A stretch of DNA of 64,000 nt, taken from positions 33,358,001-33,422,000 of the forward strand of contig CM119371.1 of NCBI GenBank assembly GCA_051294905.1, in the 5' to 3' direction. A model generated the notes under the pieces. That model made no database searches, was not told the DNA's origin, and saw only the letters and a list, made by a program, of their open reading frames with translations. The position numbers were made by a program, and so were the translations under genes. The stretch is from Botryllus schlosseri (lineage: Eukaryota). The first letter of the stretch is position 1; each line of letters opens with the position of its first letter. This document shows positions 480 through 38,467 of this stretch, one piece after another.

Positions 480-670
480 CTCACTTACAAGAATAACCTC
501 AAGAGTCATATGAATATGCATATTGTTATCAGAAAGTATGTATGTGATGTATGTGGGAAAGCATTTACTAGGAAGCAACACCTGAAGCGTCATATGGATA
601 GGCATGCCGGTATCATGAATGTGATGTATGTGGGAAAGCATTCACTTTTAAAGGTGACCTCACTAAACAT
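480..670 (+). pseudogene. Out-of-frame/degenerate N-terminal zinc fingers of the first array
   Basis: 480-612 reads LTYKNNLKSHMNMHIVIRKYVCDVCGKAFTRKQHLKRHMDRH, then a 7-nt deletion. The next finger ends HMNLY (last His lost). Confidence 0.8.
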
Positions 671-1915
671 ATGAATTTGTATACCGGCATCAAAAATCAT
701 GAATGTGATGTATGTGGGAAGGCATTTACTTGGAAAGGTGGCCTCGCAAAACATATGAATATGCATACCGGCATCAAAAATCATGAATGTGATGTTTGTG
801 GGAAGGCATTTACTTGGAAAGCTGACCTCACGCAACATATGGATATGCATACTGGCATCAGAAATCAGAAATGTGGTGTTTGTGGGAAAGCATTTACTAG
901 GAAGCATGACTTCAAGCAACATATGGATATGCATGCCGGCATAATAAATAATAAATGTGATGTTTGTGGGAAAGCATTTACTAGGAAGCACGACCTCAAG
1001 CGTCATATGGATATGCATACTGGCAACAAAAATCATAAATGTGATGTTTGTGGGAAAGCATTCATTAATAGGAATAAACTCTGGATTCATATGAATGTGC
1101 ATGCTGATATCCGAAATCATGATTGTGATGTATGTGGGAAAGCATTTACTTGGAAGCATTACCTCAAGTATCATATGGATATGCATGCTGGCGTCAAAAA
1201 GCACCAATGTGATCTATGTGGGAAAGCATTCATTAAGAAGAATACCATCATGCATCATAGGAATATACATGCAGGCATCAAAAATCATAATCATGAATGT
1301 GATGTATGTGGGAAAGCATTTACTTTGAAAGGTGAACTCACAAACCATATGGATATGCATACCAACATCAGAAATCATGAATGTGATGTGTGTGGGAAAG
1401 CATTTACCAGAAAGTATGACCTCAAGCAACATATGGATATGCATGCCGGCATCAAAAATCATATATGTGATGTTTGTGGAAAAGCATTTACTAAGAAGCA
1501 GGACCTCGAGGCTCATATGGATATGCATACTGGCAACAAAAATCATAAATGTGATGTATGTGGAAAAGCCTTCACTCATAAGAATTACCTCTGGAGTCAT
1601 ATGAATGTGCATGCTTACAGCAAAAATCATGATTGTTATGTATGTGGGAAAGCATTTACTAGGAAGCAGGGAATCGAGCTTCATATGCTTATGCACGAAG
1701 GTGTCAAAAAACATAAATGTGATGTATGTGGGAAGTCATTTTCTAGGGACCATCACCTCAAGTCCCATTTGGCTAGGCATGCTGGCGTCAAAGAACATGA
1801 ATGTGATGTATGTGAGAAAGCATTTACTACGAAGGGTGAACTCAAGCATCATATGAATATACACGCAGGCGTCAAAAACATAAATGTGAAGTATGTGGTA
1901 AAGCATTCACTCTGA
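671..1915 (+). CDS. Tandem C2H2 zinc-finger protein, 14 intact fingers (core of a longer array frameshifted at both ends; possibly a pseudogene or terminal exon)
   Basis: 14 repeats of CxxCx12Hx3H with ~84-nt period. Upstream finger at 543 is out of frame (77-nt spacing). One A is missing at ~1874-1878, so further degenerate fingers continue out of frame to ~2360. Confidence 0.9.
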   Translation: MNLYTGIKNHECDVCGKAFTWKGGLAKHMNMHTGIKNHECDVCGKAFTWKADLTQHMDMHTGIRNQKCGVCGKAFTRKHDFKQHMDMHAGIINNKCDVCGKAFTRKHDLKRHMDMHTGNKNHKCDVCGKAFINRNKLWIHMNVHADIRNHDCDVCGKAFTWKHYLKYHMDMHAGVKKHQCDLCGKAFIKKNTIMHHRNIHAGIKNHNHECDVCGKAFTLKGELTNHMDMHTNIRNHECDVCGKAFTRKYDLKQHMDMHAGIKNHICDVCGKAFTKKQDLEAHMDMHTGNKNHKCDVCGKAFTHKNYLWSHMNVHAYSKNHDCYVCGKAFTRKQGIELHMLMHEGVKKHKCDVCGKSFSRDHHLKSHLARHAGVKEHECDVCEKAFTTKGELKHHMNIHAGVKNINVKYVVKHSL

Positions 1916-3449: not shown

Positions 3450-4900
3450 TTTAGTTCACGCGCACCTTCCTGGAAAATACATTGTTGGGTTTTGCACAAG
3501 AACTTCTAGTGCTTTGAGTGCCATGTCTCTATAAAAACTATATAGCACTCCCATCCAAAATACAGCAGATTTTCCAGCAGCAAAAATGCCTGCTAGAAGT
3601 ATACGGTTTTGACAGTATGATAATACGTTCCGGAAACCCCTGCTCATCGAAAGGTTGCAAAACCCACATCCGTTTTTCATATGCTTCCGCCTGACGGCTT
3701 GGAAAACGTGCTCTAAAACTAACAAGAGAGTGAGCACATTAGAGCTCATCAACTCATTATATGCTGCTCCTGGTTATGTTATTTTATCTTGAATCCCCCA
3801 TTTTCTGACTCGCGAGTGAATGAGAAGAGTAAATCATATCGTGCACTCGCACATCAAAAAGAAAGCAACTTTCATTTTAGTATGCAAAGGTTATTCGTAG
3901 GGCTGGGCACAATGATTCGAGTACTCGAATCTGAATCTAGTAATAGTTTTAATGATTCGAGTCGAGTAGTAAAAGACGATATTTTCGAGTGCTGAAATTA
4001 CAAGCTCCTCGCTACTGAAAGGTAATTTATCAACGAGAATTATAGTTTTGATGCTAGTTTCCAAATTGGAAGGCTTAAAACACTGATTGACTGCATTGAA
4101 GCATACGAAACATAGTACAAAGCTACAAAGCTTACGTTAAATAACACATTTTCGAAGTCATATTGATCCCATAACCTTGTCACGAAGTGCAATGAAATCG
4201 GTACGGTCGAGAAAATATCAAAGCATCATTAATGTGGTATGGATAACAGGCATTATATTCTTTGCTGTGGCATAAAAGGTACATATTTGAACTTTGACAT
4301 ATTACATTCTGTTATGACGTCATAATGTGTGTTACTCGAATACTCGACTCGACTCGAAGCATAATACGTGATTCAGAATCGCATAACTCAGGTACTCGAT
4401 GTTGCCCAGCCCTAGTTATACGGGTGTGTATAATAAGGAGAACGCGAAACTACAGTTGCACGCAACCCAGCTCTATATGAAACATCTCTTACGCACGCGA
4501 TTTCAAATTGGAGTGCATTATATTACTCTGTGGGTCGCATTTGTACTTCATTTTACTACATTTGTCATACTGTCAACTCATATTGCAAGAACGGGACTAT
4601 TTTGTGCCGACCACATAGACTATACTATAGAAATTATCAATATCGAAGGCTTTAGCTAACAGTGGACGGTCGTTTTGACCGGATTTCTTCTCTGCCGATC
4701 TTGTTGGCATCGTACTTTGCCCATCTGTATGATGGCGAAATCTCCATGTCATCGCGTGTCCCAGCGATAAAAAGGTGGGCCTCGAAATACCTGTGTCTCA
4801 TAATTCCGCACCCGCTCGTTGCACAGGCACACCCCTATATAAAACATCACACCGGCTTCCGACAGTGTTTTAAAGAGAACCAATGTTGAACAGATCTTAT
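3450..4900 (+). pseudogene. Decayed membrane-protein (7TM/GPCR-like) relic interrupted by a MITE
   Basis: Homologous to 31450-32120 and 61375-61980. Frame at 4480 reads KHLLRTRFQIGVHYITLWVAFVLHFTTFVILSTHIARTGLFCA, with synonymous differences from the paralogues. Boundaries approximate. Confidence 0.4.
3898..4414. mobile_element. hAT-type MITE (TIR TAGGGCTGGGCA)
   Basis: 12-bp TIRs. 8-bp TSD gttattcg/gttatacg. ACTCG-type subterminal repeats. Confidence 0.85.
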
Positions 4901-5454: not shown

Positions 5455-6790
<1,336 letters not shown>

Positions 6791-7327
6791 CTCGATAGTG
6801 ATGTACCAGGTTTCTGCTGTTTAGTTTAAAGCAGAATAAGCTGCGGGGAAAGCAGCATTTATCGCGTATAGTGGTAAAGTGCGCAGTGAAGTCGAAACTT
6901 GGGTTAAAAGTAGCAAAGCTATAAATCATTGATAAATTCATCTAAATTATATTGCACATATAGTTTTAGCTACTAATAAGGCTAAATCTGATTGATAAAA
7001 ATGGGCAAGCGTAAAAGCGTTTTTCGTGACAATTATTAGAGAGAATTCAAAGGTATCAAATGAAGTCGAAGGGTGAGTGTTTCGCACATTGCAATATCTG
7101 CAATTGTGACAATAACCTAGAGGCTGTTAGCGCGCGCGTACGGCTTTGCAGTGTCTCGTGATATCTTGGTGTATTTAATTTAATTGTCTCGTGTTTGATC
7201 ATCATTATCAGTCTCGTTTTCTCTCCCTATATATTCAATTGCTGGACTCGTTTTCGTTGGTTACTTTGCTGAACAGACGGTTGGAGATTCTTGGGATAAA
7301 GCATCGTTGTAAATCCTACTTTGTGCC

Positions 7328-8982
7328 CAGTGGCGGCTCGTCCTATAGGGCAACTGGGGCATTGCCCCACCTGAAATTCTGTTCAATAACAGTTCTTTAC
7401 CATTTATAGACGCAAAGCAATCTATATATACCGAAATCACAGCAAAAATCGTATTCTTCTTGTCCTTTCGCTTGTAAATGCCCATATATACAGCGAAGTC
7501 TCTGCGAAAATCGAATTCTCTTCCGTGTTTTCGCTTTGCAAATGCCTAGCCGGGGCATGCCCCGGTAGCGCTCATAACAAGCTTTCACTGTCTATTCTCT
7601 CAAAGCTGCGCACAATAAAGAAACAGTGATTTACTCTCTCCTATTCATAAAATGACCGAGCAACCGGGGCAACATAGCCTGCTTGCCCTTAAGGTGTGAT
7701 GTAACAATCGTATCTACATCTGAACTCGGTTACCGTCATATGCGTTTAGTCGACCTTTGCTGGTATAGGTCGATTTTGATGGTGTTTCACACCATGATAA
7801 TTCTTGAAACTTGGTATGTCATGTCGTGATGGTGGTATTTAACATTGTCCCAAGTTTCAGGGTTTCTACTTAAAGTTTAGGGTAGTAATTCCGTTTCCGA
7901 TGTTGAGTGTGTGCTGATTCGTCATGTATCGCAAACAGATTTTACTCAAAAGCCGGTATTGGTATCCATTGATTTTGACGATGTTCCATACCGAGATCGG
8001 TCATGACATTTGGTACGGTAAGTCTTAATGTTAGTATTCAACGCGGTACCAAGTTTCAAGTTTGTCACTGTACTGTGTTAGTGGTAATTTCGTTTCCTAA
8101 GTCGAGTGAGAGCTGACTCGTCATTTATCGCAAACATATTTTACGCAAAGCCGGTATTGGTCTCCATTGATTTTAACGATGCTCCTTACCTAGATCCGTC
8201 ATGAGCTTTTGCATGGTATGTCTTGATTTTAGTATCGAACGCTGTGCCAAGTCTCAAGGTTGGCACTCAATGATTAGGGCAGCAGTTTCGTTATCAAGGT
8301 CGAGTATGTTAAAGATGTGCGCTGATCTGACACTTAGCCTACCTAACGCATTGCGGATTTCACGCAAAAGTCGGCGTATCTGTGTTAACGCTAACTGTGT
8401 TCCATACTGAGATAAGTGATGAGATGATGATATCATGAAACAGTTTACTAACATCCTCGGTTTGCATTCAAATATTTACTTTTATTTTATATTCTCCAAT
8501 GTCAATTTTGACCGTGAAATTGTGGCCTTCAGGCCATTTGCTTACAATTACAACCCGTCAAGCGCGATAGCTGTTTCGTTTTCGATGGCGGCTAACAGCT
8601 GATCGCTTGATCAATGATAAGCCTATTCCTCAGTAAATTTTACGCAAAATTCGGTGTTGGTCTGTTTGTATTAATTTTGACAGTGTACCATACCGAAAAC
8701 GGTCATGAGGCTACTTCTCGTTGATTTCATGTAACAGTGTACCAAGTTTTCGGCTTTCATCCACGTATTTATTCGGTAATATATTTTCCAAAGGCGATTT
8801 TGCAGCAGACATATAGACCGTAAGCCGTATGTGTCGTGTGACAGTCTCCAGCATCAAGGCCAAAATATCTCCTATGCTGTATCGGGACCGAATTTCCGAG
8901 GCTGTTATCCGTAGTTCTTCAGAATTATGTTTTGGATTCAATATGACATTGTCCAATCTATGAGATAACAATTGCGTATGTG
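7328..8982. mobile_element. Truncated copy of the non-autonomous hAT element seen complete (inverted) at 53422-55342
   Basis: Begins with TIR CAGTGGCGGCTCGT. Reverse-complement match to 53740-55342. Contains degenerate ~200-bp internal tandem repeats (aaagccggtattggt at ~7950 and ~8147). Ends abruptly at 8982. Confidence 0.85.
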
Positions 8983-9510
8983 CAGGGTTGTAATGACTCG
9001 AGTCATGACTCGACTCGAGTCAGACTCGAGTCACGATTTTTTTATGACTCGACTTGACTCGAGTCATTTTCTTGAAATGGGAAAATGACTCGACTCGACT
9101 CGAGTCAATATTTGGATTGACTCGACTTGTACTCGAGTCATTACGCATGACTCGACCCAAGTCATTGACTCGGCTTATTTTATATGACTTGAAGATGAAG
9201 AAATTTGCGAATCATAATGGCTATAGATCAACGCATCCGACGAATTCTGCCGACATCGCTATTTGTCACCACTGCTTTCTTCGCACTTGTCTCATATCAG
9301 ATATGCCGCCGTAAAAACAACAGAAAATGTACATAGTAGCAATGCATTGTACAAAATCGTCCAGTGATGAAGAGGTAATAGATCCTCCGCAATTAAAGTA
9401 CTCAAGACTTTTCAATTATACAAGCAAGCAATTGAATCAAAATTCAATTAGAGCCAATGAAATGACTCAGATGGTGAAGAGATGATAAGCTCATGTGTAG
9501 ATTTGAAGGC

Positions 9511-9726
9511 GATGATTCTTTGCATTTTTGGGCGACTAGAAAGAATGAGTATTGAATGATATTCAGTGTGGTTCAAAAATGCTTGTCAATTCCTGCATCA
9601 AGTTCTAGTGCACTAGTGGAACGTGTATTCAGTATATGTGGATTCATTTTATGGCCATGCCGCTTTAACATATTTGAGGATCTCCTTTCCACATTAGTAT
9701 TTTTGAGGTGTAACTCATTGATTTGA
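9511..9726 (+). pseudogene. hAT transposase C-terminal dimerisation-domain relic
   Basis: Translates DDSLHFWATRKNEY*MIFSVVQKCLSIPASSSSALVERVFSICGFILWPCRFNIFEDLLSTLVFLRCNSLI*, matching the hAT FW...LSIPASS..ERxFS pattern. Copy at 38979-39194. Confidence 0.85.
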
Positions 9727-10910
9727 TCTGCTGTCTGTGAAAACACACAATGCCCCTCGTCCATTTGACGTTTTGTTAGGTATGTGCATTGTGCACGTGA
9801 GTAATAATGAATGGCTAATGTTATGTGAAGTTTGTACAATATGGCTGTTCTAAAATAACTTCTTTTTTTATTTTACTGGGTGGTTACTTGATAAAATTGT
9901 CATGTTGCATAGAAGGAACACTGAATCTGGCTTAATTTGAAAAAAGTGGAATCAATGATGTAAGAGGAGAATATTTTGGATTTGAAAATAAATGGAGTAT
10001 TTTAGTGAGAAATTCTTTCATATAATATAATACATAGTAGTAAGCCGACTATTTTTTCATATCCAAAACATTCTAATCTAATAACTTCACTTTTTCTAGT
10101 TGGAATGGAGTCACATTTGCTATGAATCATATTTTTACACAATGTAGCAATATCATGAGATAGCCGGTAAAATTCGAAAATATCTATTTGAAATTAGTCT
10201 AAAATTTTCTTTCATAGCATTGCTTTCTACTGGTTGGAATTGAGCCAAATTTGATTTTTTAGGCAATCTAGCAATTTTAAGAAGTAGCCGGAATATTTGA
10301 AAAAATGTTTTTGAACAGCCCCATTGTACAATTATTTCTCCAATGCTGTAACTGCGATGTAGTCTGTAATGCACTTTAGTATAATCAAAAGGTATCTGTT
10401 CTGTTGTCACTGCACAATGTACATAGTTGCATGCACGCTTTTACAGCATGCTGGCCTGTTGCAAATACCTCTACATAAACATGCATCTATTGATTCTCTA
10501 TCAACTATAGTATCTTGACGTGAATTTGTTGGTTCTCTATCAGATAGTATGTAGACGTGAATTCGTTGGCTCTCTATCAGCTATTCGTGAGCTATCGTCG
10601 ATGTGCTCATAATAAAAACTGAATGCTTGTATTGGTGATGTATCAGACTGACAAGAGAGATATTTGATTTTAAGGTCTAAGATTAGTAAAGTTATCTTTA
10701 GCATCGGTAAATGAGGCCAGGACCCGTCCGTTATCTGCCTAAATAAACACTTGTCAAGACTCTGATAGGGGCAAAATGAGCATGTTTCGCAAACAAGGAA
10801 TTCGATATCACCCAAGCAGGATTGAAAATATGAGTTGAACATGACTTCAATACTGTGACTTGGACTCGACTCGAGTCATAACACCATGACTCGGACTTGA
10901 CCCCTTAAAC

Positions 10911-12446
10911 CAGTGGTTCTTAACCTTTTTTCTTCCAGCGCCCCCTTTAAAAAATTATTGTGCTCCAGCGCCCCCCCAACTTCATATTGTAAGGAATGTA
11001 ATAAAGACAATGAGTAAGAGGGAGGACCGTGACAGCACTTCGTTAACCCACCTAAAACGATTGCCTTGCGCACCCATAGCGTGATAAACCGAACTTCTGA
11101 GGGCTTCGCCCCCACGAACCCCATTTCGTGATTTAGATGGTCAGCAAAGTTTGTGTGGCCTGGTCGCCCTAGGTGCCAAAATTTTCCATAATGCATGAAT
11201 GAATAGGTGGTAATTACATATATAAGTCGCTATAAACTTTTTATCCTCTCAGCCCACGTAATCAGATTTACCAGTAGCACTGAGTGAGCTGTTGTATAGG
11301 AAAATAAAGGGCACGTAATTAATAATTGAACATATTCGGGCGTGCCCGCAGGTACAATTATTCGTTACCAGGGCCGTAACAGCACTTCTTCAGCCCCCCC
11401 CCAAACAAAAAACGTTGGTCCTGGGCCCCCATCGGGTGATAAACCAAACTTCCGGGGGACTTCACTCCCAGACCCCCAGTAGGCTGTCCGCTATTTGCTG
11501 ATAGCCTATTAGGTATTTAAATTGGGTGTCCATTTACTGAGGCAGCTATTCTCGCCTATTCGCGCGAAGTGCGAAAAATTTCACTAATTAATGATTGAAT
11601 TGGTCAATATCATCGGGAATTGCATGTAAATTGGGATCAATTTTTATCCTCTCTCTGCTCACGTAAACACATTTACCGGTAGAGCTGAGTGAGGTGCAAT
11701 GTTCCCTCTAAGCTGCGCACGCGCGCAGTGCTGACACGGTCTCTGCACACAGAAAATCTACGTTGCGCACAACAAATCCGGAGTTATTACCTTTTTGTAG
11801 TCGTTACGCACTGTTGTCCAAGGGTCAGCGCAGTGAGTTGTTGAGTGTGCGCAGACTCATCAAAACTTAAAGCGAACATTGTGAGGTTTCTTGGAAACTG
11901 TAGGGCCCGTTACTAATAATTAAACATATTCGGGCGGGCGAACCCGTTGGTATGACTTCGTTGCATGGTGTTATTTCGTGACCCCCTGTCTGCAATATCA
12001 AAAAATATAGAATCGCTCATCGGGGATATCGCCCAACAGCAATATCCCTGTCGCCCAATCGTACTAAACTAAAAGACGCACACGATTTCAGATTGGAATT
12101 TCTTCACTGACATAATTTTTCCCTGCCAGATGGAATTCGTCTTCTGGGGTTCAGATTGCCAAGACAGGAACATTCGGTGTCAGTCATTTAGGCGCCCATG
12201 GACAATCAAACCTATATGTATTTTGAAGGTTATATGTAACGAAGTTTTCGGTGTTAATTTGCTCTGAATACTCATTAAGTATGTCCTATCACCACATCAT
12301 CTACTGCGAAGCCATTTTTCTCCAGCGCCCCCCATACCGCCCCCCTGAGCCCAGCGCCCCCCATATCGCCCCCTGAGCGTTTCCGCCCCCCTTCAAGATC
12401 GCCAGCGCCCCCTGGGGGGCGCTGGGGGCAAGGTTAAGAACCACTG
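10911..12446. mobile_element. Non-autonomous hAT (Charlie/Buster-like) element, present only in copy A
   Basis: Perfect 15-bp TIR CAGTGGTTCTTAACC. Perfect TSD CCTTAAAC. Empty site at 40372-40379. Confidence 0.95.
11697..11881. mobile_element. Small MITE (TIR CAATGTTCCCTCTAAG-like) nested in the 10911 element
   Basis: caatgttccctctaag...cttaaagcgaacattg, flanked by tgaggt on both sides. Related host sequence without it at ~14340. Confidence 0.65.
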
Positions 12447-13686
12447 CCTTAAACGGTGACTTGGACTCGGACTCGAGTCTGTGATGAATTGAAAATGACT
12501 CGACTCGAGTCAATACCACAAAAGTATGATTGACCCGTGACTCGGAACCATGTGACTTGGTTACAACCCTGCTTGGTCGGTAGAGTCTCGATTCATATGA
12601 CTCGGTTCGAGTCATGAACCGTATTTTGAGAAAATGACCCGAGTCGAGTCATCAGAAAGTTGTGACTGGAGTCGGATTCGAGTCATTATAGAACCCTTGT
12701 ATGAACCCGTGCTCGATGGTTGTTATAGCAACCAGGGTTGAAATGACTCGAGTAAAGACTCGACTGGAGTCGAGTCATGTTTTCAAAATACGGAAATGAC
12801 TCGACTCGAGTCAATCTGTGTATTGACTCCACTTGGACTTCATTTCGCATGACTCGAGCCAAGTCATATGACTTGGGAATCAGACGACCAAGACCGACAT
12901 TTCATTGTAATTTCGAAGAATAGTAAAGTCACCGCACTATTGGGATTTCATCTATTGGTACTGGTACTTGAAAATGCGACCAAAAACTGTTCGAAGTGTG
13001 AAAAGTTAGTATGTTATAAATGCGAACCGGAATCGCCTATGCGTAACAAAAACAAATTTCTTTAGTGAGGAACACTGACTCCCAAGTTTTATTTCTTTGT
13101 GGAGCTCATCATTTTCTTCTGCTGTTCGCATATGTACTGTGAAGCTAAAATTGATCGAATGAAGTCTTATTGAATCACGCAGGGCGCGAAGAAAATTTCG
13201 AGATTACTGAATCTCTTAAAGAATTTAGGAGTAAAATCGTGAAGCCCATTTGCAGGTCCACTGCCGTCAACACATAGTAATTGAATCACATGTCAACGGC
13301 CGTATAAATTTACTTCTACGGACGCAGGTTGGCCACCCCTTGCAATATAGGGATAGCATATTTTGAGACCCAAAATCAGGCACTCATTACAAATTCGAAA
13401 TTTATTATATTGGACGCGAATACGGGTAATTTGAAAACCTATATAGGAAATCCTGTTATGTTGCCCTAAAAAAGTTATGTTGACATCTCCACTCCTGCAA
13501 AACCATCGAAGTAGCTCGCAACTCGTAAGTTTAAACAAACTTCGCTAAGTTGCGACCGTACGAGTTCATGACCTTCAGCAGTAGAATAAATGCAAAGTCG
13601 TATTTCTTTGTAGCTGCATAGTCGTAACGGTAATTTGGATGAAATTTTATTGTTATTGACGGCTTACCAGCAAAAAGGTTGAGAGA

Positions 13687-13718
<32 letters not shown>

Positions 13719-14029
13719 ACCATAGCCATAGATGTCAATAGTTTCTCAGTGCTTAGTGCTCAGAATTTCACATCCCTTGGTGGATTTGAGGGGATTTCGG
13801 TATTCTGGCATAGTCAATATTTGGACTTACGGAATCAGTGCGTCGATAGCATTTGATTGATGCTAGTTATTATAAATTATCAGCTGTCCATGATGAATTA
13901 CATTATCGAGGTGAGGCACGACTGGCAATTATCTTATACTTGTCCAGACGACAGGTGAGGTATTGCCTCACTCCCCTTCCTGACTGCACGTCACTGAAAT
14001 GATCCCTCCGCAGTACCATGCTTATTGCT

Positions 14030-15826
14030 TAGGGCCGTAACAGTACGTCGTCAGCCCCCCTCAAAACGGTGGTTTCGGGCCCCCATACGATGATATACCG
14101 AACTGCTGGGGTGCTTCTCCCCCCAGACCCCTCAGGCTGCACGCTGTTTACCGCTACTTGTAATCTACATTGGAGGCCGTTTACTGAAGCAGCATTTCTG
14201 GCGTTAATGCGCGAAGCGCGAAAGATTTCTATTATTCATGAATGAATCGGTCAATAAGATCGGGAGTTGCATGTATATTGTTATTGCAATCAATTTCTTG
14301 TCCTCTCTGCTCACGTAATCAGATTTACCGGTAGAGCTGACTGAGGTGTCTTGGATAGGCTACTGTATGGCCCGTTGGTATGACTCCGTAGCATGATGTT
14401 ATTTCATGACCTCCTGTCTGCTATATCAACAAAAAAAAGAATCGCCCAAACGTAGGCTATTAAACTAAAAGACGCACACGATTTTAAATTGGTATTTCTT
14501 CACTGGCATATAATTTTTCCCTGCGTGATGGTATATGTCTTGTGAGGTTCAGATTGCCGAGACAAGAACATTCGGCAGCCGTCATTTAGGCGCCTATGGA
14601 CAATTAAACCTGTATGTGCATATGTGCATATAACGAAGTTTTCGGTCAGCACAAGGGCAGTCCTTTTCGGCCAAGGTTTTCTCGCTGCCGATCGTTCTGG
14701 CACACTTCTTGGAGTCGCATGTTACATGGCTTAAAACACTGGTTCTCAATTTTTTGTCTTCGCGGACCCCTTTTGGACCACCACGGACCCCGCAGACCCC
14801 CTCAAGTTTTCGTTCAAAATTAGCTCGATTATCGCGCAACCGCCATCTGTCTCGTGCAGATACTGATTGTAGGCTATTGATAAACAGCAACAAAATGGCT
14901 TTTCTTGAAAATAGCATCACAGTATATGTAAAAAATGGGTAGACTTTTATTATATAGTAACGAATTTTGCAGCTGTATTTATTGTCTTGAAAATCCGTCA
15001 CTTCGATTGGATACGAACGAGTGCCAAAAATCCATTTTCACACATATATATTGGTGGCGAATGTAATATTAACGCGTAACGCTTTCGACGACAGATTTTT
15101 GTTGTGAGTTTTTAATAAAAAGTTCACGTCCAGCCTAGTCGTTTCTATCTATGATCTCACCTTGAAGTTATTTAGTGGTTATATCACAGGAGTAAATGGA
15201 TTTCTTGGAGAGGTTTCAATTCCTTCATTGGGACAGATTAGGAAAAAAATAAGGAATTTATATTTAAACGACTGTTTGATAATTTGCTGAGACTGACAAC
15301 TCCAAATCAAAAGTGCTACCTCTAACATTTCATTTTTCCACAGACCCCAACAAAACATCTCTAAACAGTAGGATGTGTCATCTCAGACGACCATTTTAAT
15401 GATGTGAGTCCTAAAGTTTGAGCAATTATGAAGCGAACCCGTCATGCCTTTCCCAATTAAAAAAAGGTTATCAATCACGTTACAAATTTAGAGGTTTCGC
15501 GGACCCCTGAAAATGCTTCGCGGACCCCCGGTTGAGAACCACTGACCTAAAATTTTATATGTGTTGGTGCATCGTGGCGCGGTAATGGCCAACGCCGAAA
15601 TGCCCATTTTTATAAATCTTGCGTGTTTTTTCTTTAGGGAAGGTAACCAAAAATCAAGATATTTGGCAACTTAAAATCGCGCCCAGCGCAAAATGTTTTT
15701 GAAATAGTTTCATAAATATTTTAAAAAAACTCTATAATTTATGCTAATTCACTAAATAATTTTGGGCCCCTGTCGAGCTCGCACCCTCCAAATTGGGGGG
15801 TTTGGAGTGCGACAGTTAAGGTCCTG
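14030..15826. mobile_element. Non-autonomous hAT-like element (TIR ~CAGGGCCGTAAC)
   Basis: tagggccgtaac...gttaaggtcctg. Absent from the paralogue at ~6040-6055. Relatives at 11369-12260, 26573-26937 and 56517-57060. TSD unclear. Confidence 0.6.
14737..15544. mobile_element. Charlie-like MITE nested in the 14030 element (copy at 42658-43467)
   Basis: TIR cactggttctcaa/ttgagaaccactg. TSD gcttaaaa/acctaaaa. CGCGGACCCC subterminal repeats. Empty-site analogue at ~26879. Confidence 0.8.
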
Positions 15827-16317
15827 CTTATATAATAATGGATATTAATATTAATAATTAATAATGCATATATATTAATGCATAGGGCATATACCGTAAG
15901 TCAATCCACACTAGTTTCAATGTGGAACAGACGGTTTGGCAAACGGGTCCACGAAAAGTATTTTGTCTTTGAAACCGCTCCGCAGAGCTAAAATGGTTGC
16001 CGACCCCTTCCTTAATACACACTTTATAGGGTTGTGTTCTGTGCATCCTTCAACTATTTGAAATCTTTTTATATCTGAAAACTCCTCAAAATATCAATGA
16101 CTTTAGACAGACACACATTGAGCAAGCACGTGCATTGCAGTTTTGCACCAAAGCCACCCATGGTATGTATAATTTTGCTATGTCTTAAATTGGAACTTCT
16201 ATGAGTACGTTTCTGTGACTTCATTCTACGCTCAGCTCAGATAAGTGTTCTTGAGATGGTCTATCCACAATGTCTGAATCTCAAAAACTTCAGATATTCA
16301 ATACTAAACCAGCTAAT

Positions 16318-16964
16318 CAGTGGTTCCCAACCGGGGGGGGGGGTTGATATTATTAGGGGGGAATCTGACTTTGGCGTAGTATCGGAAGATACACTGGGTT
16401 CACATGGTTTATAGATTATTGTAGTATTGAACTGTAGAAATTATTTCTTTACAATTGTACCTTTCTTTGGCCGATTTTAAGCTAGGTGGCGGATTTCACT
16501 GTCTTCCGTAGATAATACACCCCCTGATAAAGTGAGGCTCTCGAGACGTTCTCGTTGGGCCCGCGACAGCTTCTCGACCAAATTGCTACTAAGCAGAAAA
16601 AGGCCAAGCCGAATTCAACACAAGGCCGCTGGTGAAATTGTTTAACTTTTTAGCCAACATATGAGCTAACGTGAACATAATAAGCCATAGCAACCGGACT
16701 TGGTGATTTATTTTTCGTCACCGGCTACCCGACCGGTAAAAAAAACAGGTCAAATTTAACTGTACTTTACCGAAGTGTAGTACGGTCCCCAATCGACAGG
16801 AATCGGACATAACTGAATATGTTTGGTCATTAATTGCTCAGTCAACAAGTGGCTGGGCGTTAAAAAGCACCTTTTTTAGTCACAGGCAAATTTTTCATAG
16901 GGGGGAATTTTTGCTTAAATATCGGCCATTGGGGCCACGAGACGAAAAAGGTTGGGAACCACTG
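16318..16964. mobile_element. Charlie-like MITE (copy at 44241-44889)
   Basis: TIR CAGTGGTTCCCAACC. agctaa duplicated on both sides. Empty site in the inverted paralogue at ~5600. Confidence 0.85.
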
Positions 16965-17339
16965 AGCTAACAGAATACATATCTGTAAAAGTATCAGTAA
17001 TAATCACCCACGTTACAAGAACTGCAGCAGAGACTTTATTAAGCGTCTAACCGTCGAAGCGGCTAGATGCGAAAGACACAGGAACAACACAAGACATCAC
17101 TACTATAACCGGGAGCGGTATAGAGCACGGCTGCCACATATCGACTGCAATTGTACATGTGAATATCCCTATGCATTTTATGAAATGTCCATGAATTTAC
17201 GTCAGGAAATATTGGAGAATAAAATCGAATAATTGGACGGAGATGAAAAAAAACGTTTTTCAGATACTTGAATGTAATACATGTTAATGACTTCACCCCT
17301 GGAGTAACCCTTCGCAGTATATGCTGTCCCCCATGCATT

Positions 17340-18608
17340 TCATCCATGATTGTTGCTGCCAGTATGCACATTCATATGTCGCTGGAGGTTATTCTTCTGA
17401 GTAAACGCTCTCCCACATAAATCACATTTATGATTTTTGATGCCACCATGTATATACATATGAAGCTTGAGGAGACCCTTCTGAGAAAATGCTTTACCAC
17501 AAACATCACATTCATGTTTTTTGACACCAGCATGCATATCCATATGTTTCCTGAGATTATTTTTTTGAGTAAATGCCTTCCCACATACATCACACCCATG
17601 ATTTTTGATGCCAGTATGCACATTCATATGTCGCTGGAGGTTATTCTTCTGAGTAAACGCTCTCCCACATAAATCACATTTATGATTTTTGATGCCACCA
17701 TGTATATACATATGAAGCTTGAGGAGACCCTTCCGAGTAAATGCTTTCCCACATACATCACATCCATGGTCTTTGATGCCAGTATGGATATTCATATGTT
17801 GCCTGAGTGCATGTTTATAAGTAAATGCCTTTCCACATATATCACATTTATGTTTTTTGATGCCAGCGTGCATCTTCATATGAACCCCGAGGCTCTTCAT
17901 CTGGGCTAATGTCTTCCCACATACATCACATTTAATACCTTTTCTGCCAATATCCGTTTTCATATGACAATTGCGATCAATCTTCCTAATGAATGCTTTC
18001 CCACATATCTCACATTGATGTTTTTTGACGTCATCATGAGTATTCATATGAAGTTTAAGGCAACGGTTACTAGTAAATGCTTTATCACATACATCACATT
18101 TACGATTTTTGATGCCGGAATGCATCGCCATATGACTATTGACGTCATTCTTCCTCAAAAATGGTTTACCACAAACATCACATTCATGATTTTTGACACC
18201 AGCATGCATATCCATATGATGGTTGAGGTGGGCCTTCTGAGTAAATGCTCTCCCACATACATCACATTCATGTCTTTTGACGTCAGCGTGCATATCCATA
18301 TGAGACTTGAGGTAGCTCTTCAGATGAAACGATTTCCCACATATAGCACATTCAAGACTTTTGATACCAACATGCATATTCATATGTCGCTTGAGGTCAC
18401 CCTTCATAGTAAATGTTCTCCCACATACATCACATATATGAGTTTTGGTGTAGACGTTTCGAGAGAATTCTTTTTTGGCAACATCGCATGGACGATCTTT
18501 CAAGTCGTGATGAATAGATAATTTTTCTGACTCCATGTCGCTCTTTATATGGAAATGACAATGGTGTTTATTTCTTACAGTGGTAATAATATCTGTTTTC
18601 AAGTTCAA
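17340..18608 (-). CDS. Tandem C2H2 zinc-finger protein, 13 fingers (finger 6 has lost its last His)
   Basis: Intact 422-codon frame. The track start is a TTG; the first ATG is at 18536. Possible splice acceptor cag|ATATTAT at 18593/18592, shared with gene 1 (430/431). Confidence 0.92.
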   Translation of the reverse strand: MNLKTDIITTVRNKHHCHFHIKSDMESEKLSIHHDLKDRPCDVAKKEFSRNVYTKTHICDVCGRTFTMKGDLKRHMNMHVGIKSLECAICGKSFHLKSYLKSHMDMHADVKRHECDVCGRAFTQKAHLNHHMDMHAGVKNHECDVCGKPFLRKNDVNSHMAMHSGIKNRKCDVCDKAFTSNRCLKLHMNTHDDVKKHQCEICGKAFIRKIDRNCHMKTDIGRKGIKCDVCGKTLAQMKSLGVHMKMHAGIKKHKCDICGKAFTYKHALRQHMNIHTGIKDHGCDVCGKAFTRKGLLKLHMYIHGGIKNHKCDLCGRAFTQKNNLQRHMNVHTGIKNHGCDVCGKAFTQKNNLRKHMDMHAGVKKHECDVCGKAFSQKGLLKLHMYIHGGIKNHKCDLCGRAFTQKNNLQRHMNVHTGSNNHG

Positions 18609-19175
18609 AGTGGTTATTACATATTTTCCACAATTTCTTCAGTGTATATACCGGTAAGTAGTTCTATGACGGCATGGCACGGTCTGATAATTATGAAACT
18701 ATGAAAGTGTCGAACTGTTGACGTTTTTCGACGTTAAAAAACCTAATTTTGAAAAAATGTTGCCCTAATGTATATAAATTATGAGTTTTCACGCATAATG
18801 CTAGAATTGTACTACTCATCTTCATTTCTGGCTGGAACTGTCTGTCCTCACATCACGAAGTATGGTACAAATACAATTAAAATGTATTGTAGTACAACGG
18901 AAGATACTTTCCTACATTCTCGGGTAGAAAGTGTCTGTCCTTTGTAAGTAGCTTGCCAAGAGTGGAGAAAAAACGTTAAACAGCAGCAGTTGTGCGTACA
19001 CTGCTGGTGAAAATCCGTGTTGCTTCAATGTTGTCTACATCAGTGGTTCTCAACCTCCCCTCCCGCGGACCGGCAAAATTTCAAAAGATATGTGGCGGAC
19101 CGGTGAACCTTGAAAATTGAAATCAACCCCAAATGTAATGTATGCAGCTGTTTTCCTGCAAGTATGGTACTGGAG

Positions 19176-21513
19176 CAGGCGTGGTCAACCTTTTTGCTAT
19201 TCACGGCCACATTTCGATCACTTATACGGCCTACGGCCGCATACCAGGACACACAGTCGTGATGAACTACCTAGACGCGAAATACCCATGTCCATTACTG
19301 GTGAACTCCGGACTAATCGACTTTATGATATCGTCTTACCCTACGCGGGGAAATCACTATATAGTGCCCACGTTATGAATAGTTACTATAGGAACAATGA
19401 TCTTGGCGCGCAACGTGAAAATTCTATTCTATTCTCCAACGAATTTCATCATTAACACTGGTCGTCTCTCGTATTACTATTTATCCTTTCTCAGCCAATG
19501 CGATCAGATTCATCGGTAGAGTTGATGTAGGGAGTGTTTTCGAAAATTTTGGCAATTTATGAATGTTGATGAATCTTCGGGTGGGCCGATTGTTACTGTA
19601 GTCACTTTGTTGCGTGTTGTTATTCCTTGACCTCCCATCAGGATTGTCGGTATAGTGGAAAGAGATTGGAATCTACCAAACGTACCAGAAACAAATTTCT
19701 TTCGCGAGGAGCGTAGACCTATAGTTCCTAGATGGTGTTTCTATATCGCAGTGGTCGGGAACCTATGGCTCTTTTGGTCTAAGATATGGCTCTTTGGGAA
19801 ATTTTTAATTTTTTGCCTAATTTATCAATATTGCAGCAACTTGTTAGTAAATTTTCATGACGGCCAGAATATTATTCTCGTGGCAGCATAAGAACGTATT
19901 TGATAGGTCAAGACAGTGCGGGATATCCACTATCCAAGGTTAGGGGCTCGTACCGCCCTCTTTTCAAAATCCCCAAATATAAGTTGCTGTCACGCCGGCG
20001 ACTAACACCACTCGCGAGTTCGATCAACCTGCCATCGCGAGCTTCGAAATCTTGGATTGCACGATACCTTGGTAGATTAAAGAGAATAGCAGACGTGGCC
20101 ACGCTTGTAGAACAATGCAGTTTTCAAATACACGTTGTCTTCCTGATCCACGCCGACAAATGAATTGCCTTGGAAGTGACATTCATAATTACAAATTCAA
20201 CTTAAAAACAACGCAATAGCTATCCATGTTCTTGACGTATGTGGCCAGAAAAATATGGCGCATATTACGAATCCCACATATTAGTGCAGGGGTGGCCAAC
20301 CTGCAGCCGTAGCAGGGAATTTGTGCGGCCGTCGATACGTAATTCAATTAGTATGTGTTGGCGGCCGTCGACATGCAAAATGAAATTACGAATTCACTCT
20401 CGAATTTTTGAGAGATTTCAATGAATCTTGAAATTTTCTTTGCGCTAGACGCGATTCAATGCGACTTCTTTTCTCGATTTTAATATAGTAGGACACTTTT
20501 CAATCTGTGCCGGATTCGAAATTGTGTGCTCCTCACGAAAATAAATTGTTTATGGTACATTTGGGCGATTCCAATATGTTTCCACTATACCGACAATCCT
20601 GATGAGGGGCCAAGAAATAACAGCATGCAACAAAGTTACTAATAGCAATTTGCCCACCGAAGATGCATTATCATTTTTATCTTAGCCTAAATTTTCAAAA
20701 GCATTCCTTCCCTCTATCAACTCTACCAGTGAATCTGATCACATGGGCTGAGAAAGTATAAATATTTGATAGCATTATGTGATACTGCTACTATTAATGA
20801 CGGAATCGATCGGTGATCTGAAAAGTTTTCATGCTTTGCGCGACTATATCCAAACCCAGTGACTATCCATAACATTACCACTCACGATTGCGGTGCGTAT
20901 AACAGGTCGATATGAAAAGTAGAATAGTGCGAAGTTCAACAGAAATAAACATGGACAGTTTAAGATAGGCATTTTGCGTCCAGTTAGTTCATTGCGGATA
21001 TGCCCTGGAATGCGGCCGTAGGCTACATATGTAATCGAAATGCGCCCGTGATTAGCAAAAAGGTTGCCCACCTCCATAGTAGTTCTACTATCGACTATGT
21101 CATACTCTAAAGTGCTACCAATATGTCACGGATTTTCAATTGTGACGTAACAGTTGATTGACATGTATGGCTCTTTGGGAGTTACAATTGAAAATATTGG
21201 GCCAATATGGCTCTTCGGTAGAAAAAGGTTCCTGACCCCTGCTATATGGGGTGCATCATTTTTTTCGGTTGTTCGCATCTGTACTGTGAGGCCCAGATTG
21301 CAAAGGGCGCTACGACAATATAATAATCGAAAAATGAAGTCGCATTGAATCACGCCTAACGCGAAGAAAGTTTCAAGTTTAATTGAAATATCTCCAAAAG
21401 TAGGCAGTCAACTCGCAAATTAAATTTTCATGTCGACGGCGGCCAACACATACTAATCGAATTACGTGTCCACGGTCGCACAAATTTCCTTCTGCGGCCG
21501 CAGGTTGGTCCTG
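19176..21513. mobile_element. Three-level nest of hAT MITEs (copy at 47101-49438)
   Basis: Outer element TSD tactggag/tactaaag. Middle element 19749-21241, TSD ctatatcg/ctatatgg. Inner 20287-~21076 is an inverted copy of the outer family. Confidence 0.75.
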
Positions 21514-22059
21514 TACTAAAGAGTGACATTCTTTTCGTAATTAATGCATCTCTGGCTTGCACAATCGCCTCTGCATTGGCTTGGTGCTCCCGATATTGAC
21601 TCTGGCCTACATAATCGCATCTGCAATAGTCCTGGTACAAAAGAGATAATCGCTGGCCTAACCATCGCGTCTGCGGGTCCAGCAATGCGTTGGCTCCCAT
21701 CCCTCCGAGGGCTTGGTTGACAATATGCCGTTAAGTGTATTCTGATAAGTGATTGTGAGTAAAGAGCGACATCGCGAAACTGAATGACATCGAATGTTCG
21801 GAAACATGTGTGATTGTTTGTGCGTGCAAGCGTAATTGATTTCCACTAATAGGCCTACTTAATTCGAAAAGAATTGAAACCCAGTCATTTTATTTCAAAC
21901 ACTGCCATCTTATTTTTCGGCTTGCTACGCACCTGATCACGTGAATTTATCAAGGAGGGATTTGAGAGAGATATCACGCCTTCCTCAATTCCGATATAGG
22001 ACAGTATGATTCCAGTATCAGCTACCCGTCCTTCCAGTACTCCGAACCTATACAGACGA

Positions 22060-22278
22060 ATGGTTCAAAAGGAATGCGAAGTGTTTGAAGCTTCCGGGAA
22101 ACGACTTGCCAACCTTTAGTCTCGCTACGAAGTGCTGATTACTATTAGGTTCACTTCTGTGGAGGCGGAAAGAGCATTCAATGCATGCGGACTCTATGTT
22201 ACAAAACTCCAGTGCCGGCTACAGGATGCCACGATTGATGCAATGTGCGTCATAAGGAGGCCGTTGCTGAAGCAGTGA
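22060..22278 (+). pseudogene. Second, distinct hAT transposase C-terminal relic (copy at 49985-50203)
   Basis: MVQKECEVFEASGKRLANL*SRYEVLITIRFTSVEAERAFNACGLYVTKLQCRLQDATIDAMCVIRRPLLKQ*, with a TSVEAERAF motif. TIR-like ...caacccta end at ~22506. Confidence 0.8.
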
Positions 22279-22539
22279 ACATTATATTTGCGTGATTTTT
22301 CTCCTATTCATTTGTACTGCGCGCGTATACATAAATCAATAATAACACTGTGTTATGATTTTGCAATCCATTTTTCATGCACATCTCGTGAAATCGATTG
22401 TCTCACTTAGCAGTTATTATCCGGTTAACCCGTTAGATAAATTCCAAATATACGGATATATCCGTTATCCCGATCATAAAAATTATTGTTTTCCGAACCA
22501 ACCCTAGTACAGGCCAAAGAAAACGGTCATATTTCAGGA

Positions 22540-23520
22540 AATAGACGATCCAAGTTTTGTATGTTAGCAGACTGACGAAGTTAAATATAAATCTTCGAGT
22601 CAATTTCATGGTCAAAATACTGGCACACTCTGAGTTTTTTACAGTTAGCAACAACTGATGTTGACATGACTAGAGTCATGGCTTCAATATAGAAACGTTT
22701 TCGGAAATACCTCAATTAAGTAGCTGCACTAAAATGAGTTGACCTGATTCGAATGTCGACGTATGCATATTTCTGAATGAGTCACGACTTGGGTGCAAAT
22801 AGTCGAGTCATCTTTCAAGTCATCAGCTATAATGCTTCGAAAAACCTCACGATCAGCAGGCCTACTAAAATCCTTTATTCCCTGGATTCGATTTCCGTTT
22901 ACGGTTTGGACGTGGTAAGTTGGATCAGCATGCCGTGACAACACGGATAAAGGAAGCGATATTGGGATGCCATGAATGGCCTTAATAATAGTAGTGACGA
23001 GCATTATAATATCAATAAACCCATGAACAAATATATTCAATCAGTTTGAAAAGAATTGAAGCAATTTCGAAGAAATCTGATAACAATTTGCAATAATTTT
23101 TTATTTCTACATGAATAATTTGTCTACTCTGCCTTCATAGTACTAAGTTTGCAGCCATCCTGCAATTAATGATACTTTCATGGAATTGTGTTCCCAGACA
23201 GCTTTGAATAAAGCATACTTGTTAGGAGCATTCTCATCTCATTACACATATAGAAGACCGATTAATTCGTACAGTGAGCGATGTGTAGTATTATCCCGAA
23301 AGAAGCCAGGTTACAACTAATTACACGCAAGTATAAAAATAATTGAACAAAGTCCGAGGAACCAGAACACTTTCAAAATGAGTCACCCTGGCGCACTTAT
23401 GGTTCGTTACCAAGGTACCAGAATAAGAATGGTATAGAAGAGAACGAATGCCAGCCTGACATAGTCTGTAGCCTACAATATATGCAACAGTTTATCAAGG
23501 TCTCACTAATCCCTTAAGTT
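22540..23520 (-). pseudogene. Decayed membrane-protein (7TM-like) relic (copy ~50465-51420)
   Basis: Paralogous to 28240-29170. Hydrophobic DYVRLAFVLFYTILILV followed, after a frameshift, by LGN. Boundaries approximate. Confidence 0.35.
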
Positions 23521-24657
23521 ACATGGGAATCATCATTGTTAACAAATACGAGATCAGTATGAATCGTATATTATATTCGAGTAAGTATCATAGTCAAAAT
23601 ACTGGTATACTCGGAACTTTTTGACCAGGGACAACTGATATTACAATATTGTCGATATAAAATGTTCTTTTAAATTATGCACTAGTTGCTGGCTATTACT
23701 CCTGACGAGTGTCAACCGAATATATTCAGGTTAATATCACAATAAATATACTAGTCAGTTGTTTATTATAGGTTTATGATAATTTTGTAGTATAACAGCA
23801 GACAAAATATGCATGTTGCGTCGTGCGTATCGCGGTGCAATCAGTGCTCCTCGATGCCATAGACCAGTGGTCCCCAACCTTTTTCGACTCATCGCCCTCT
23901 TATAAAGCTCGAAAAATTTTCATCGCCCCCCTAGAAGGTGACCCAAATTTGAGATCTATTGAGGTCTCGTGACCACCGTTCCCTCTAAGCTGCGCCCGTG
24001 CGCAATTGCGCAGTGCTGACACGGAAAATTTAATCTGCGCAGGAAAAAGCCGAAGGGATGACCTTTTTTAGTTAGCACCACAAAATTAACGAGAAAAGTT
24101 GTAATTCGGCAGTCCGATCAAAGTGATGACCATTTTTTATTTGTTGCGCACTGCTGACCAACGGACCGCGCAGTTAGTCGGTGAATGCGCACAGACAGAG
24201 TTTTGCCAAAACCCCAAACGTTCAACGATAAGTTAGATGGCCATTACTGTACTATTCGGTGTCATAACAACTTATACTGTCCTCCACAAATCTAACCGCA
24301 CAGGGTTATTAACGTTTTGGAAATCGTTGGAGTTACTAGTATGCTAAAAAATAAGGCTACTTCGAGAAGCAATGCTGTTGTGTTACGTCTATAAAGTATA
24401 GACCAGGGGTCGCCAACTCAAAATGGGTCGCGGGCCGCATGACTTCAATATCGAGAATAACATAGCCAACGCAGCTCAACAACTACGTGCTCTCTGCTGT
24501 GCTCTCTTACATGGGCGATGGACATAGTCACCACAAAATAAATGATATTTTATTGAACAAACACAAATACAATAAAAAATATCATGCTCATCAATTTCAT
24601 TATATTTTGAACTATTAGCTGCACACGATACCAGACAACACTATGTAGCAACTAAAA

Positions 24658-25503
24658 CAGGGTGGGCAACCTTTTTGTTATTCACGGCCGCATTTCGATT
24701 ACTCATGTATAGCCCGCGGCTGCATTCCGGTGCATAGTGGTGATAAACAAACTGGGGCCAAATATCCACGTCAAACTCCCCATGTCCATTGCTGGTACAC
24801 TCCGGACAAATCTATTTACGCATATCGGCTTACTATGGGCACCGATACCGTGAATATAGTCATGTTATGAAGAGCTACAGTGATACGCACTGTAGTCGCG
24901 CGAAGCGCGAAAATTGTTTCATGTTTTTGAGTGAATTTCATATTAGTATAGTTTCACATATTACTATCAAATATTCATCCTTTCTCCGCCCATGTGATCA
25001 GATTCACCGGTGGAGTTTATGCAGGGGTGTGTGCAAAAACTTAGAGAACTGCTGGGGTGCATCTTTGGGTAGGCCAATTCTCATTAGTCCCCAATGTTGC
25101 ATGCAGTTATTTCTTGACCTCCCATTAGAATTGTCGTTATATTGGAAATATATTGGATTCGCCCAAACGCAGGCCTACCAGAAAAAAAAAATTCGGGATG
25201 AGTAGAACACGATTCAAAATTGGTATTTCTTTATGGGTCGCATCATTTTCTCCACTGTTCGCATCTGTACTGTGGGACTCAGACTACAAAGGACACTGCT
25301 GTAGTAAAATCAAAAATCAACTCGCATAGAAGCGCACATAGTGCGAATAAAATTTCAAGAATAATTCAAACCTCACATTAATTAGGGAGTCAATTCGTAA
25401 ATTCAATTTGCATAATATTGACAGCCACCAACACATCCTAATTGCATTGAGTAGTGCCGGCCGCATAATTTTTCTTCTACTGCCGCAGATTGGCCGCCCC
25501 AGG
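24658..25503. mobile_element. MITE of the same family as 19176-21513, within a copy-A-specific block (24404-25879)
   Basis: cagggtgggcaacctttttgttattcacggccgc start and colinear body. Degenerate right TIR. Confidence 0.7.
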
Positions 25504-27486
25504 ATTAAAGAATCGATGTTGGGGTTAGTTGTAGACACGGTACGACGATAGCCTATTTGCTGGAAAACTATCTCCTCGTAAAGCACGATTTATTGGAGAG
25601 TCCGAAATCGTTTATCAAGCCTCCCGGTCTTGGCAGTTGTGGGCCATTGCACGCCAAGGCAATATGCCCATTCATATAAGCAATTTATTCCTCCATATAA
25701 TGATATTACCGTGCCGAATCGCAGGAATAGTGATATTGGGCAGAGTAGAATGGCTTATTTTGAACAACAACAACAATATGTTTAAACTGAAATCAATTTC
25801 GGCATTTCGAAATGGCTTTCTGACCGTTCTTCAAATATTTCCCCAAATCAGGCCGCGGGCCGCACAATATGACCTCGTGCTTGATAGTTGAAGGAAATCG
25901 AACGAGCAAAACTAGTGCCAACGTGCCAAACTCGAAATTCTGGTGCCAACTATCGTGAAAATGTGCCAATATTCTTAAATTTGGCCCCGATATGCGCCAA
26001 TTTGCAACACTGGATACTTCGCAACGACACACTAAGGAGCAGTATTAACAGAAAGTGTTCGTGCTTGCTGGCTCACGCAGAAACAGCTGATATTTGATTA
26101 ATTATGATGTAACAACAGCGGTGTATCCATTGAGAATAAACGACCGTCAATGACCGGATGCTACGAGGTTGGTAGAGTTCATAAACAAGTGAAATAGGTG
26201 TAATAGGAGGTAAATTTGCGGGACTTGAAATTCATTTCAGGTATCGCAGGCTGGAATGGGTCAAGTATTGAGCCACTTTTCTATCATCGTCGATCTCACA
26301 TAAATTGAACTGAGCAATAAAGCAAGCACATATTGAATCATTATTTGACTGAAAGTTCTATCGTTTTCGCCCCCTATCGCCCCCGTGTCCGTTTTCGCCC
26401 CCATCGTTATTTTCGCACGCTGGATCACGAAATCGCCCCCTGGGAGGCGGTATCGCCCACGCTAGGTCCCACTGCCATGAACCATATATTCCTTAATTGC
26501 GATTGTGCTATTTTCCCAATGCAAAATACCCCACATACCAAATTACCTGGAAAGCTGGATGAGCCTTACTAACAGGACCGTGTAGCAGCACTTTGTCAGC
26601 CACCGGAAACGTTGGTTCCCCTCATAGGGCGATAAACCGAAGTATTCCTTTAGTGGCATATAATTTTTCTCCACGGGGTAGCAGTTGTCCTGTCGGGTTT
26701 AGATCGCCAGAAAGGGAACATTCAACGCCAACCGTTGATGCGCATATGGACCATTGAACGTATATGTATAGTATATATATTGAAGTTTTCGGCGGTGAGA
26801 ACAAGGGCATTCCTTTTCGGCCAAGGTCGTCTATCTGCTGATCGTTCTGGCACACTTCTCGGAGTCGCATGTTACATGGCCTATAACTTCATATGTGTCG
26901 GTGCGTCGTGGCGCAGTAATCTCCGGTTACGGTCCTGACTCCAATATAGCCGTTTTAACGCGCCATCGCCCCTATCGCCCCCGTCGTTCGTTTTCGCCCC
27001 CAGCCCTATCGCCCCCTAGACCGCCAAATCGCCCACGTTGGGAACCACTGCATTGAGACATATGCCATAAAACCTTGACCTAAAATGACCGTTGCTAGTT
27101 GGTCAAAGTCTTAGATATTGATATGCCCGGTTTAGAAATGGTCGGCACCGAATATATCGTCTCGTCCCGGTACTACAAAATTGGCCAAAAGAGAAAAATA
27201 TTGCATACCGATTTTAAGTTGCGCACGCTATACATGTTTCACATAGCTGCGACTTGGTGTCCGCGCCTTTGTATTCCATGCATGCCAGTAAATACGTAAC
27301 ACACTGACATTAAATGCAATCATGTGGAGGCGTGAGGCTGGGGTCACGAGAGATTTGAGGCGGTCCAGAAAGTTTGAGAACCCGAGTCATACGAGGAGAC
27401 GGTGTCTTGTGACGTCACAATAAACCCGCAGCGGTGACGTCATAGTCACATCAGAACGCACTTTACTCCATGTCGCCGATGTACGT

Positions 27487-27900: not shown

Positions 27901-27939
27901 GTATGTACGTACAGTAGGGATATCTAGATATGATCCTGT

Positions 27940-38281: not shown

Positions 38282-38467
38282 TGTTATACCCATTTTATTA
38301 TAACACTGTTTGGTGATATCGAATGGTTCGCATTTATTAAATACTAATTTTCCTCAATTTTGGCCGTTTCTGCTCGCATTTTCAAGTACCAAACCAATAG
38401 ATGAAATCCCGACAGTATGGTCACTTCACTATTTTTCGAAATTGCAATGAAATGACGGTCTTGGTCG

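Follow-up and report, generated by a model that had tools for sequence, protein, structure and literature searches.

Cut-and-paste transposons, Ac/Ds among them, can delete the DNA adjacent to their ends, P elements undergo hybrid element insertion, and tandem clusters of C2H2 zinc-finger genes are subject to unequal crossover and gene conversion. Here we describe the junction at the left end of a non-autonomous hAT element in Botryllus schlosseri (contig CM119371.1, 33,358,001 to 33,422,000). The analysis covers this 64-kb stretch, called the window below (positions 1-64000), which is animal DNA with a GC content of 40.6% and an N count of 0, is rich in small DNA transposons and carries three C2H2 zinc-finger arrays. 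Two tandem segments, copy A and copy B, each begin at a copy of the hAT element. The reading we favor, with a probability of roughly 0.5 for the whole, is that the left end of the element was joined to an upstream target with a deletion, and that 13.9 kb of B-type sequence, including a zinc-finger open reading frame (ORF), recombined into an older tandem copy.

The closest described systems come from maize. In tandem duplications made by reversed-ends transposition, the accessible part of PMC3744419 places an element that keeps its target-site duplication (TSD) first and a hybrid element between the repeats. The same text describes reciprocal deletion and duplication chromatids as products of this reaction and mentions alternative transposition of P elements. 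Homologous recombination between repeats that are already present can resolve re-replicated arms, as in P1-rr-E17 and P1-rr-E5, according to the portion of PMC4270019 available to us.

The left junction of copy A

Elements A and B (Table 1) carry the perfect 11-bp terminal inverted repeat (TIR) CAGGGTTGTAA on each end. As the initial annotation had noted, CTTGGTCG stands on both sides of element B, at 38460-38467 and 40497-40504. Its description of hybrid flanks in copy A was also borne out, with CTTGGTCG on the right and, on the left, CGTATGTG inside an upstream element that is cut off at base 8982. Short TIRs, an 8-bp TSD and transposase homology, as expected of a non-autonomous hAT element, were all found. 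The combination of a Pfam Dimer_Tnp_hAT relic with 11-bp TIRs and an 8-bp TSD supports the assignment of both elements to the hAT superfamily as non-autonomous members; a shorter, 44-amino-acid piece gave no family in the Pfam search. When element B is taken out, a continuous older miniature inverted-repeat transposable element (MITE) of the same TIR family is restored, running in reversed orientation from 37802 to about 40625, and of this MITE copy A retains the right part only. B is therefore the ancestral insertion site and A the derived copy.

The break in A sits at the TIR to within one base. The upstream element aligns with the reverse complement of 53422-55342 as far as base 8982; it would go on with TCCG, versus CAGG at the start of the TIR, and the left flanks of A and B have just their final G in common, so that microhomology amounts to 1 bp at most. 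A scan for TIRs with 8-bp TSDs yielded seven elements, or 14 ends, in 64 kb, and by our own arithmetic from this density a random breakpoint would hit an element end exactly with a chance of a few in 10,000. The junction has the form of an adjacent deletion: the breakpoint lies exactly at the TIR, one original flank has been kept, and native DNA has been lost both past the TIR (the left half of the host MITE) and past the target (318 bp of the target element). No copy of the missing 318 bp was found elsewhere in the window, and the truncated element's own flank, TTTGTGCC, was not found downstream within it.

The element at 53422-55342, taken initially for the intact version of the truncated one, is indeed a full-length copy of that family. 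As its parent it was rejected, with 113 of 1,591 sites differing (7.1%, above most of the older A/B homology described below). It is a separate family copy in the opposite orientation and reads CGTATCTG at the matching place. At the site where B carries this element (53414-55353), A has TAAAGTATAGACC (24390-24402), two bases more than the clean empty site, TAAAGTAGACC, would have; these could be the footprint of an excision or simply an indel. An unpaired left end of the TIR family of elements A and B lies at 12733 and again at 40658, 160 bp from the element's right TIR, and its partner right end was not found in the window.

Contigs from four runs were aligned to 6500-15500 of the window. Runs X1 and X2 derive from one sample (S1), which may or may not be the assembled individual, and run X17 from another; the contig evidence refers to the 32 pieces listed, beyond which there are 264,081 more. 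Differences between element A and its family were likewise taken from the 40 listed (355 more exist), 23 of which fall inside the element and outside its nested insertion. At these private sites A differs from at least 98% of the family depth in X17, and at 21 of the 23, spread over 9282-12535, B carries the same non-family letter; at 9901 and 10829 B has the family letter, unlike A. The letter private to A and B has no depth in X17 at 11 of the 21 sites. Because 21 of 23 non-family letters are shared, the A and B elements are, from 9282 rightwards, a single old insertion that stands at least 1.3% from its family. Joints that skip the nested element were seen in all four runs, and an exact scan of metagenome contigs for the element's left end returned 0 stretches. 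Over 6500-16400, runs labelled with three other organisms and with metagenomes, mostly marine ones, hold 16-21% of the sampled words (marine metagenomes 16-19%), perhaps through shared transposons; we count this as no evidence.

The shared letters bear on a different origin of the hybrid flanks. An independent family copy may have sat at CGTATGTG in the upstream element and undergone ectopic recombination or single-strand annealing with the B-lineage element, the crossover falling in the left subterminal repeats (9068-9281); the same deletion would then have arisen without aberrant transposition. The family is abundant, with 207 and 245 contigs showing loose ends before 8983 (agreement 0.35-0.37), and both differences at the left tip would fit a foreign tip: at site 9067 A has the letter of all three relatives in the window, B being derived, and the 17 extra bp of A at 8995-9011 are absent from B and from these relatives. 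However, the 17 bp are a near-tandem repeat of the adjacent 16-mer and could reflect slippage, and no difference in substitution density was seen between the element and its flank (4/2,028 versus 13/10,261; p 0.51). The shared letters also leave just the first 14% of the element (8983-9281) in which an independent copy could have recombined with it. We consider this origin unlikely.

Divergence, depth and extent of the two copies

The homology between A and B, initially described as a 24-kb duplication that starts at a hAT TIR, measures 23,675 bp in A and 24,040 bp in B. The precise start at an element end and the hAT nature of the element were upheld, but the homology is not one block. The distal 10 kb of the pair are about 29-fold more diverged than the proximal 13.9 kb. 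The young tier begins exactly at the TIR and stops abruptly at 22836, and in the segment right after it 40 of 1,547 sites differ, compared with 17 of 12,289 within it (Fisher p 1e-25). A run of 1,158 identical bases precedes the switch, the pattern that a homologous crossover would leave, and this suggests that one occurred at about 22.84 kb.

Two levels of divergence cannot both be explained by a single copying event. A transposon-end event that copied 24 kb from B to A, adding a zinc-finger gene, would account for a homology that starts exactly at the TIR. It predicts one divergence level, whereas 0.14% and 4.0% were observed; in addition, A's far end is not followed by the remainder of the truncated element, and the hybrid and intact elements stand in the opposite order to that of the maize model. 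Such an event is largely refuted by the two tiers and is hardly tenable. The initial proposal that a transposon end made and delimits a duplication raising zinc-finger copy number was not supported either, in view of the two tiers, the hybrid-first order, the need for a second junction (see below) and a left join of the deletion type.

Contig depth, which is a per-contig figure and not a copy number, was compared between the young tier and other sequences in sample S1. In X1 the young-tier contig has a depth of 34.8, versus 7.27 for the left flank (a contig with 3 gaps); six contigs from other loci lie at 8.4-13.9. Two young-tier contigs of X2 that match exactly reach 219.3 and 208, versus 27.4 for an exact-match flank contig, and the other X2 contigs listed range from 74 to 249. 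The young-tier ratios are 3.2 against the median of the six other-locus contigs and 4.8 against the left flank in X1, and 8.0 and 7.6 against the left flank in X2. Since two haplotypes stitched together would predict a ratio of about 2, the depth comparison, which the initial annotation had suggested, leans against such stitching and towards real multi-copy DNA.

These data also bear on an assembly artefact, in the form of two haplotypes laid in tandem or of a misjoin of two family copies at the element. An artefact would fit the count of junction-spanning contigs (0 among the 32 pieces listed), and alleles could differ from each other by a few percent and by insertions. A misjoin at a repeat yields hybrid flanks as well, and the claim that the junction by itself argues against an assembly stutter was too strong on its own; the private letters shared by A and B make the better argument, as they leave less than 300 bp for a misjoin. 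The window contains no N, the young tier has more than twice the depth of the flank in both runs of S1, and the 1.5-kb insertion and 17 substitutions that distinguish A from B should be separable by accurate long reads. An artefact is very unlikely.

At its right end the homology stops at 32657 in A and 62507 in B. The position 32655/62504, considered as the right breakpoint of a duplication, was dropped, as B reads AGAAGTTC followed by GG while A reads AGAAGCTC and runs on. The apparent end is probably a later insertion into B that interrupts the A/B homology, with B continuing past the window. Merlin elements have GG ends and 8-9-bp TSDs, according to the accessible part of PMC8101967; a search of the literature for a Merlin TIR motif gave no result. 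The 450-amino-acid open frame at 62651-64000 gave no Pfam family and no match in a comparison with longer proteins only, which is weak evidence. The tandem arrangement requires a second junction somewhere in 32658-37801, and this part of the spacer probably holds the true junction of the pair; a sensitive search revealed no further homology between 6800-7400 and the spacer. The left TIRs of A and B lie 29,485 bp apart, and because B probably continues past the window, this period is more likely to be the tandem unit than 24 kb.

Alternatively, the junction could be the middle of a far larger tandem duplication made by transposition and templated upstream of the window, the unit of which would comprise A, the spacer, B and more, with A and B an earlier pair homogenised separately. 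Such a structure would reproduce the maize geometry, in which the first element has an intact TSD and the second is the hybrid (accessible part of PMC3744419), and the young-tier depth suggests more than two copies. The unit would have to exceed 55 kb, and homogenisation would have to be a separate event. Such a duplication would also include the left flank, whose contigs nevertheless have a low depth (7.27 in X1, 27.4 in X2). We regard a duplication on this scale as distinctly improbable.

Table 1. Features at and around the junction, in window positions
Feature	Position	Strand	Remarks
Older C2H2 zinc-finger paralog	602-1915	+	Frameshifted; tail-to-tail with the A and B copies; 3' flank (to 6800) inverted-homologous to 13343-17339 at 75-92%
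Second hAT-like element, truncated	7328-8982		TIR CAGTGGCGGCTCGT; ends at 8982; last 318 bp and other TIR missing
New left flank of element A, CGTATGTG	8975-8982	+	Putative 8-bp target of the join
Element A	8983-12571	+	Non-autonomous hAT; perfect 11-bp TIRs at 8983-8993 and 12561-12571; hybrid flanks; 17 bp extra at 8995-9011
Young tier	A 8983-22836, B 38468-50761	+	17 substitutions in 12,289 aligned sites (0.14%)
hAT transposase dimerisation-domain relic, broken	9481-9723	+	Pfam PF05699 Dimer_Tnp_hAT, E 5.4e-08, 33 bits (cut-off 21.4), one stop read as X
Nested hAT-like element, only in A	10911-12446		1,536 bp; TSD CCTTAAAC; clean empty site in B
Original right target copy CTTGGTCG of element A	12572-12579	+	Followed by remnant of host MITE; other MITE half missing in A
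Zinc-finger ORF A	17340-18638	-	432 amino acids, stop to stop
Switch from young to old tier	22837-22856		Immediately after 1,158 identical bases
Old tier	A 22847-32657, B 50762-62507	+	320 of 7,974 sites differ (4.0%); six alignable segments, 2.4-8.1%; each copy with insertions of its own
Spacer between A and B	32658-38467		Counterpart elsewhere in window: repeats only
MITE, same TIR family	34816-35373	+	558 bp; perfect TIRs; right end faces left end of element B across 3.1 kb (reversed-ends arrangement)
Left-hand part of older same-family MITE hosting element B	37802-38467	-	Joins up with 40505-40625 once B is removed
Element B	38468-40496	+	2,029 bp; intact TSD CTTGGTCG; ancestral insertion site
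Zinc-finger ORF B	45265-46563	-	Differs from ORF A at 3 sites
Full-length copy of second element	53422-55342		TSD TAAAGTAG; 7.1% diverged from 7328-8982
Start of large insertion in B	62508-64000		Starts GG after AGAAGTTC

Proposed events and neighboring features

In the favored scenario, the element first inserted into the same-family MITE at the B site, as the restored MITE records, and then gathered its private mutations. Two diverged zinc-finger segments, of which the two-tier pattern is the visible trace, would at this stage presumably have stood in tandem, their starts about 29.5 kb apart. A trans-acting transposase would then have used the element's left end, perhaps in a pair with the MITE right end that faces it at 35373, and joined it to CGTATGTG in the upstream element, with loss of that element's last 318 bp and of everything up to the TIR, including the left half of the host MITE. 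Homologous exchange at about 22.84 kb would have linked the B-derived arm to the older A-type distal sequence, whether by meiotic crossover between deleted and undeleted chromosomes, by unequal crossover before the deletion or by the repair, as part of the same event, of an arm that had been re-replicated. The insertion of a further element into element A, documented by the empty site in B, completes the series. The net effect would be that the zinc-finger ORF of copy A was replaced by a near-copy of that of B, with no gene copy added by the junction itself.

The joining of a left end to a target that lies still further left would correspond to the deletion-side product of a reversed-ends reaction. 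Such a reaction needs facing ends, and the perfect same-family right end at 35373 faces the left end of B across 3.1 kb, so the arrangement fits. The join and the exchange might even have been one event, in which a reversed-ends reaction between these two ends re-replicated 13.9 kb of flanking DNA and repair carried the broken arm into the older paralog. We find this doubtful, at rather long odds. If true, it would represent transposon-initiated gene conversion in an animal genome, in which the finger array of a neighbor overwrote that of one zinc-finger paralog, and the concerted evolution of zinc-finger clusters would then be driven by hAT ends among other factors.

Several observations weigh against the scenario of an end join followed by exchange. 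None of the 32 contig pieces listed crosses 8982/8983, and neither the reciprocal product nor a source of transposase was found in the window. The 17-bp indel and site 9067, two differences between A and B, fall within the first 85 bp of the element; against a background of about 0.2%, such clustering has a chance of about 1 in 90 by post hoc arithmetic, and it fits a left tip taken from another copy. Depth ratios of 4.8-8 exceed those of two copies on one haplotype, so there may be more copies than modelled. Finally, contigs from a different sample do not fully agree with the young tier, one departing from it at 4 letters in 196 and another at 1 letter and 1 gap in 168, and part of the 4% tier may therefore be allelic divergence and not paralog age.

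Zinc-finger ORFs A and B differ in three codons, and all three changes alter the amino acid. ORF A has Asp in place of B's last zinc-ligand His of one finger and Val in place of the usual helix Leu of another, which hints at decay of ORF A; three sites prove nothing.

Further elements with terminal repeats and 8-bp target duplications lie at 32963-34251, 3898-4414, 57644-58058 and 51431-52529, the first of which appears by eye to contain a reversed transposase relic. Just left of the truncated element, the translation of 6970-7120 gives a frameshifted fragment that we take to resemble the N-terminal zinc-binding region of a transposase. The TA in the center of the TSD of the nested element, CCTTAAAC, presumably places that element in the Buster/Charlie clade.

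Comparison with known systems

The junction shares with Ac/Ds adjacent deletions and P-element hybrid insertion a retained element, one original flank and a new flank that starts exactly at the TIR. It differs in being the natural scar of a non-autonomous copy, at least 1.3% off its family, in an animal zinc-finger cluster. Crossover and conversion in C2H2 clusters produce the same sharp switch from near-identity to several-percent divergence between tandem paralogs; here, in contrast, the homogenised tract is bounded on one side by an element end and not by a second crossover. We found no paper in the open-access literature on a hAT-end junction in an animal zinc-finger cluster, which is a weak negative. 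The rearrangement is of an already known type, and as a single case it is ordinary. It is of value as a clean natural scar of a hAT-end rearrangement within such a cluster. Should tracts that run from a TIR to a crossover recur in the genome, the replacement of paralogs in zinc-finger arrays would have a measurable cause in old non-autonomous elements.

The composite insertions of maize, as presented in the accessible part of PMC4270019, resemble this locus in having a 10-20-kb tract delimited at one edge by an element end and at the other by a homologous crossover. In those insertions the target is duplicated on both sides, whereas this locus lacks both the second target copy and the remainder of the target element, which amounts to replacement with loss. 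The window, which extends to 64000, holds neither a second target copy nor a native continuation after the second repeat. With the reversed-ends duplications of maize, to the extent that they are covered by the accessible text of PMC3744419, the locus has in common a hAT element, repeats that start at the element, one intact 8-bp TSD with one one-sided match, and a facing end of the same family nearby. In the maize duplications, however, the intact element comes first, the hybrid lies between the repeats and there is one age; here the hybrid is first (8983), the intact element second (38468), and there are two ages. When a repeat begins at a TIR and the flanks are hybrid, a duplication made by a transposon is not the only possible source, and it is the order of hybrid and intact elements, together with the divergence profile, that distinguishes deletion from duplication.

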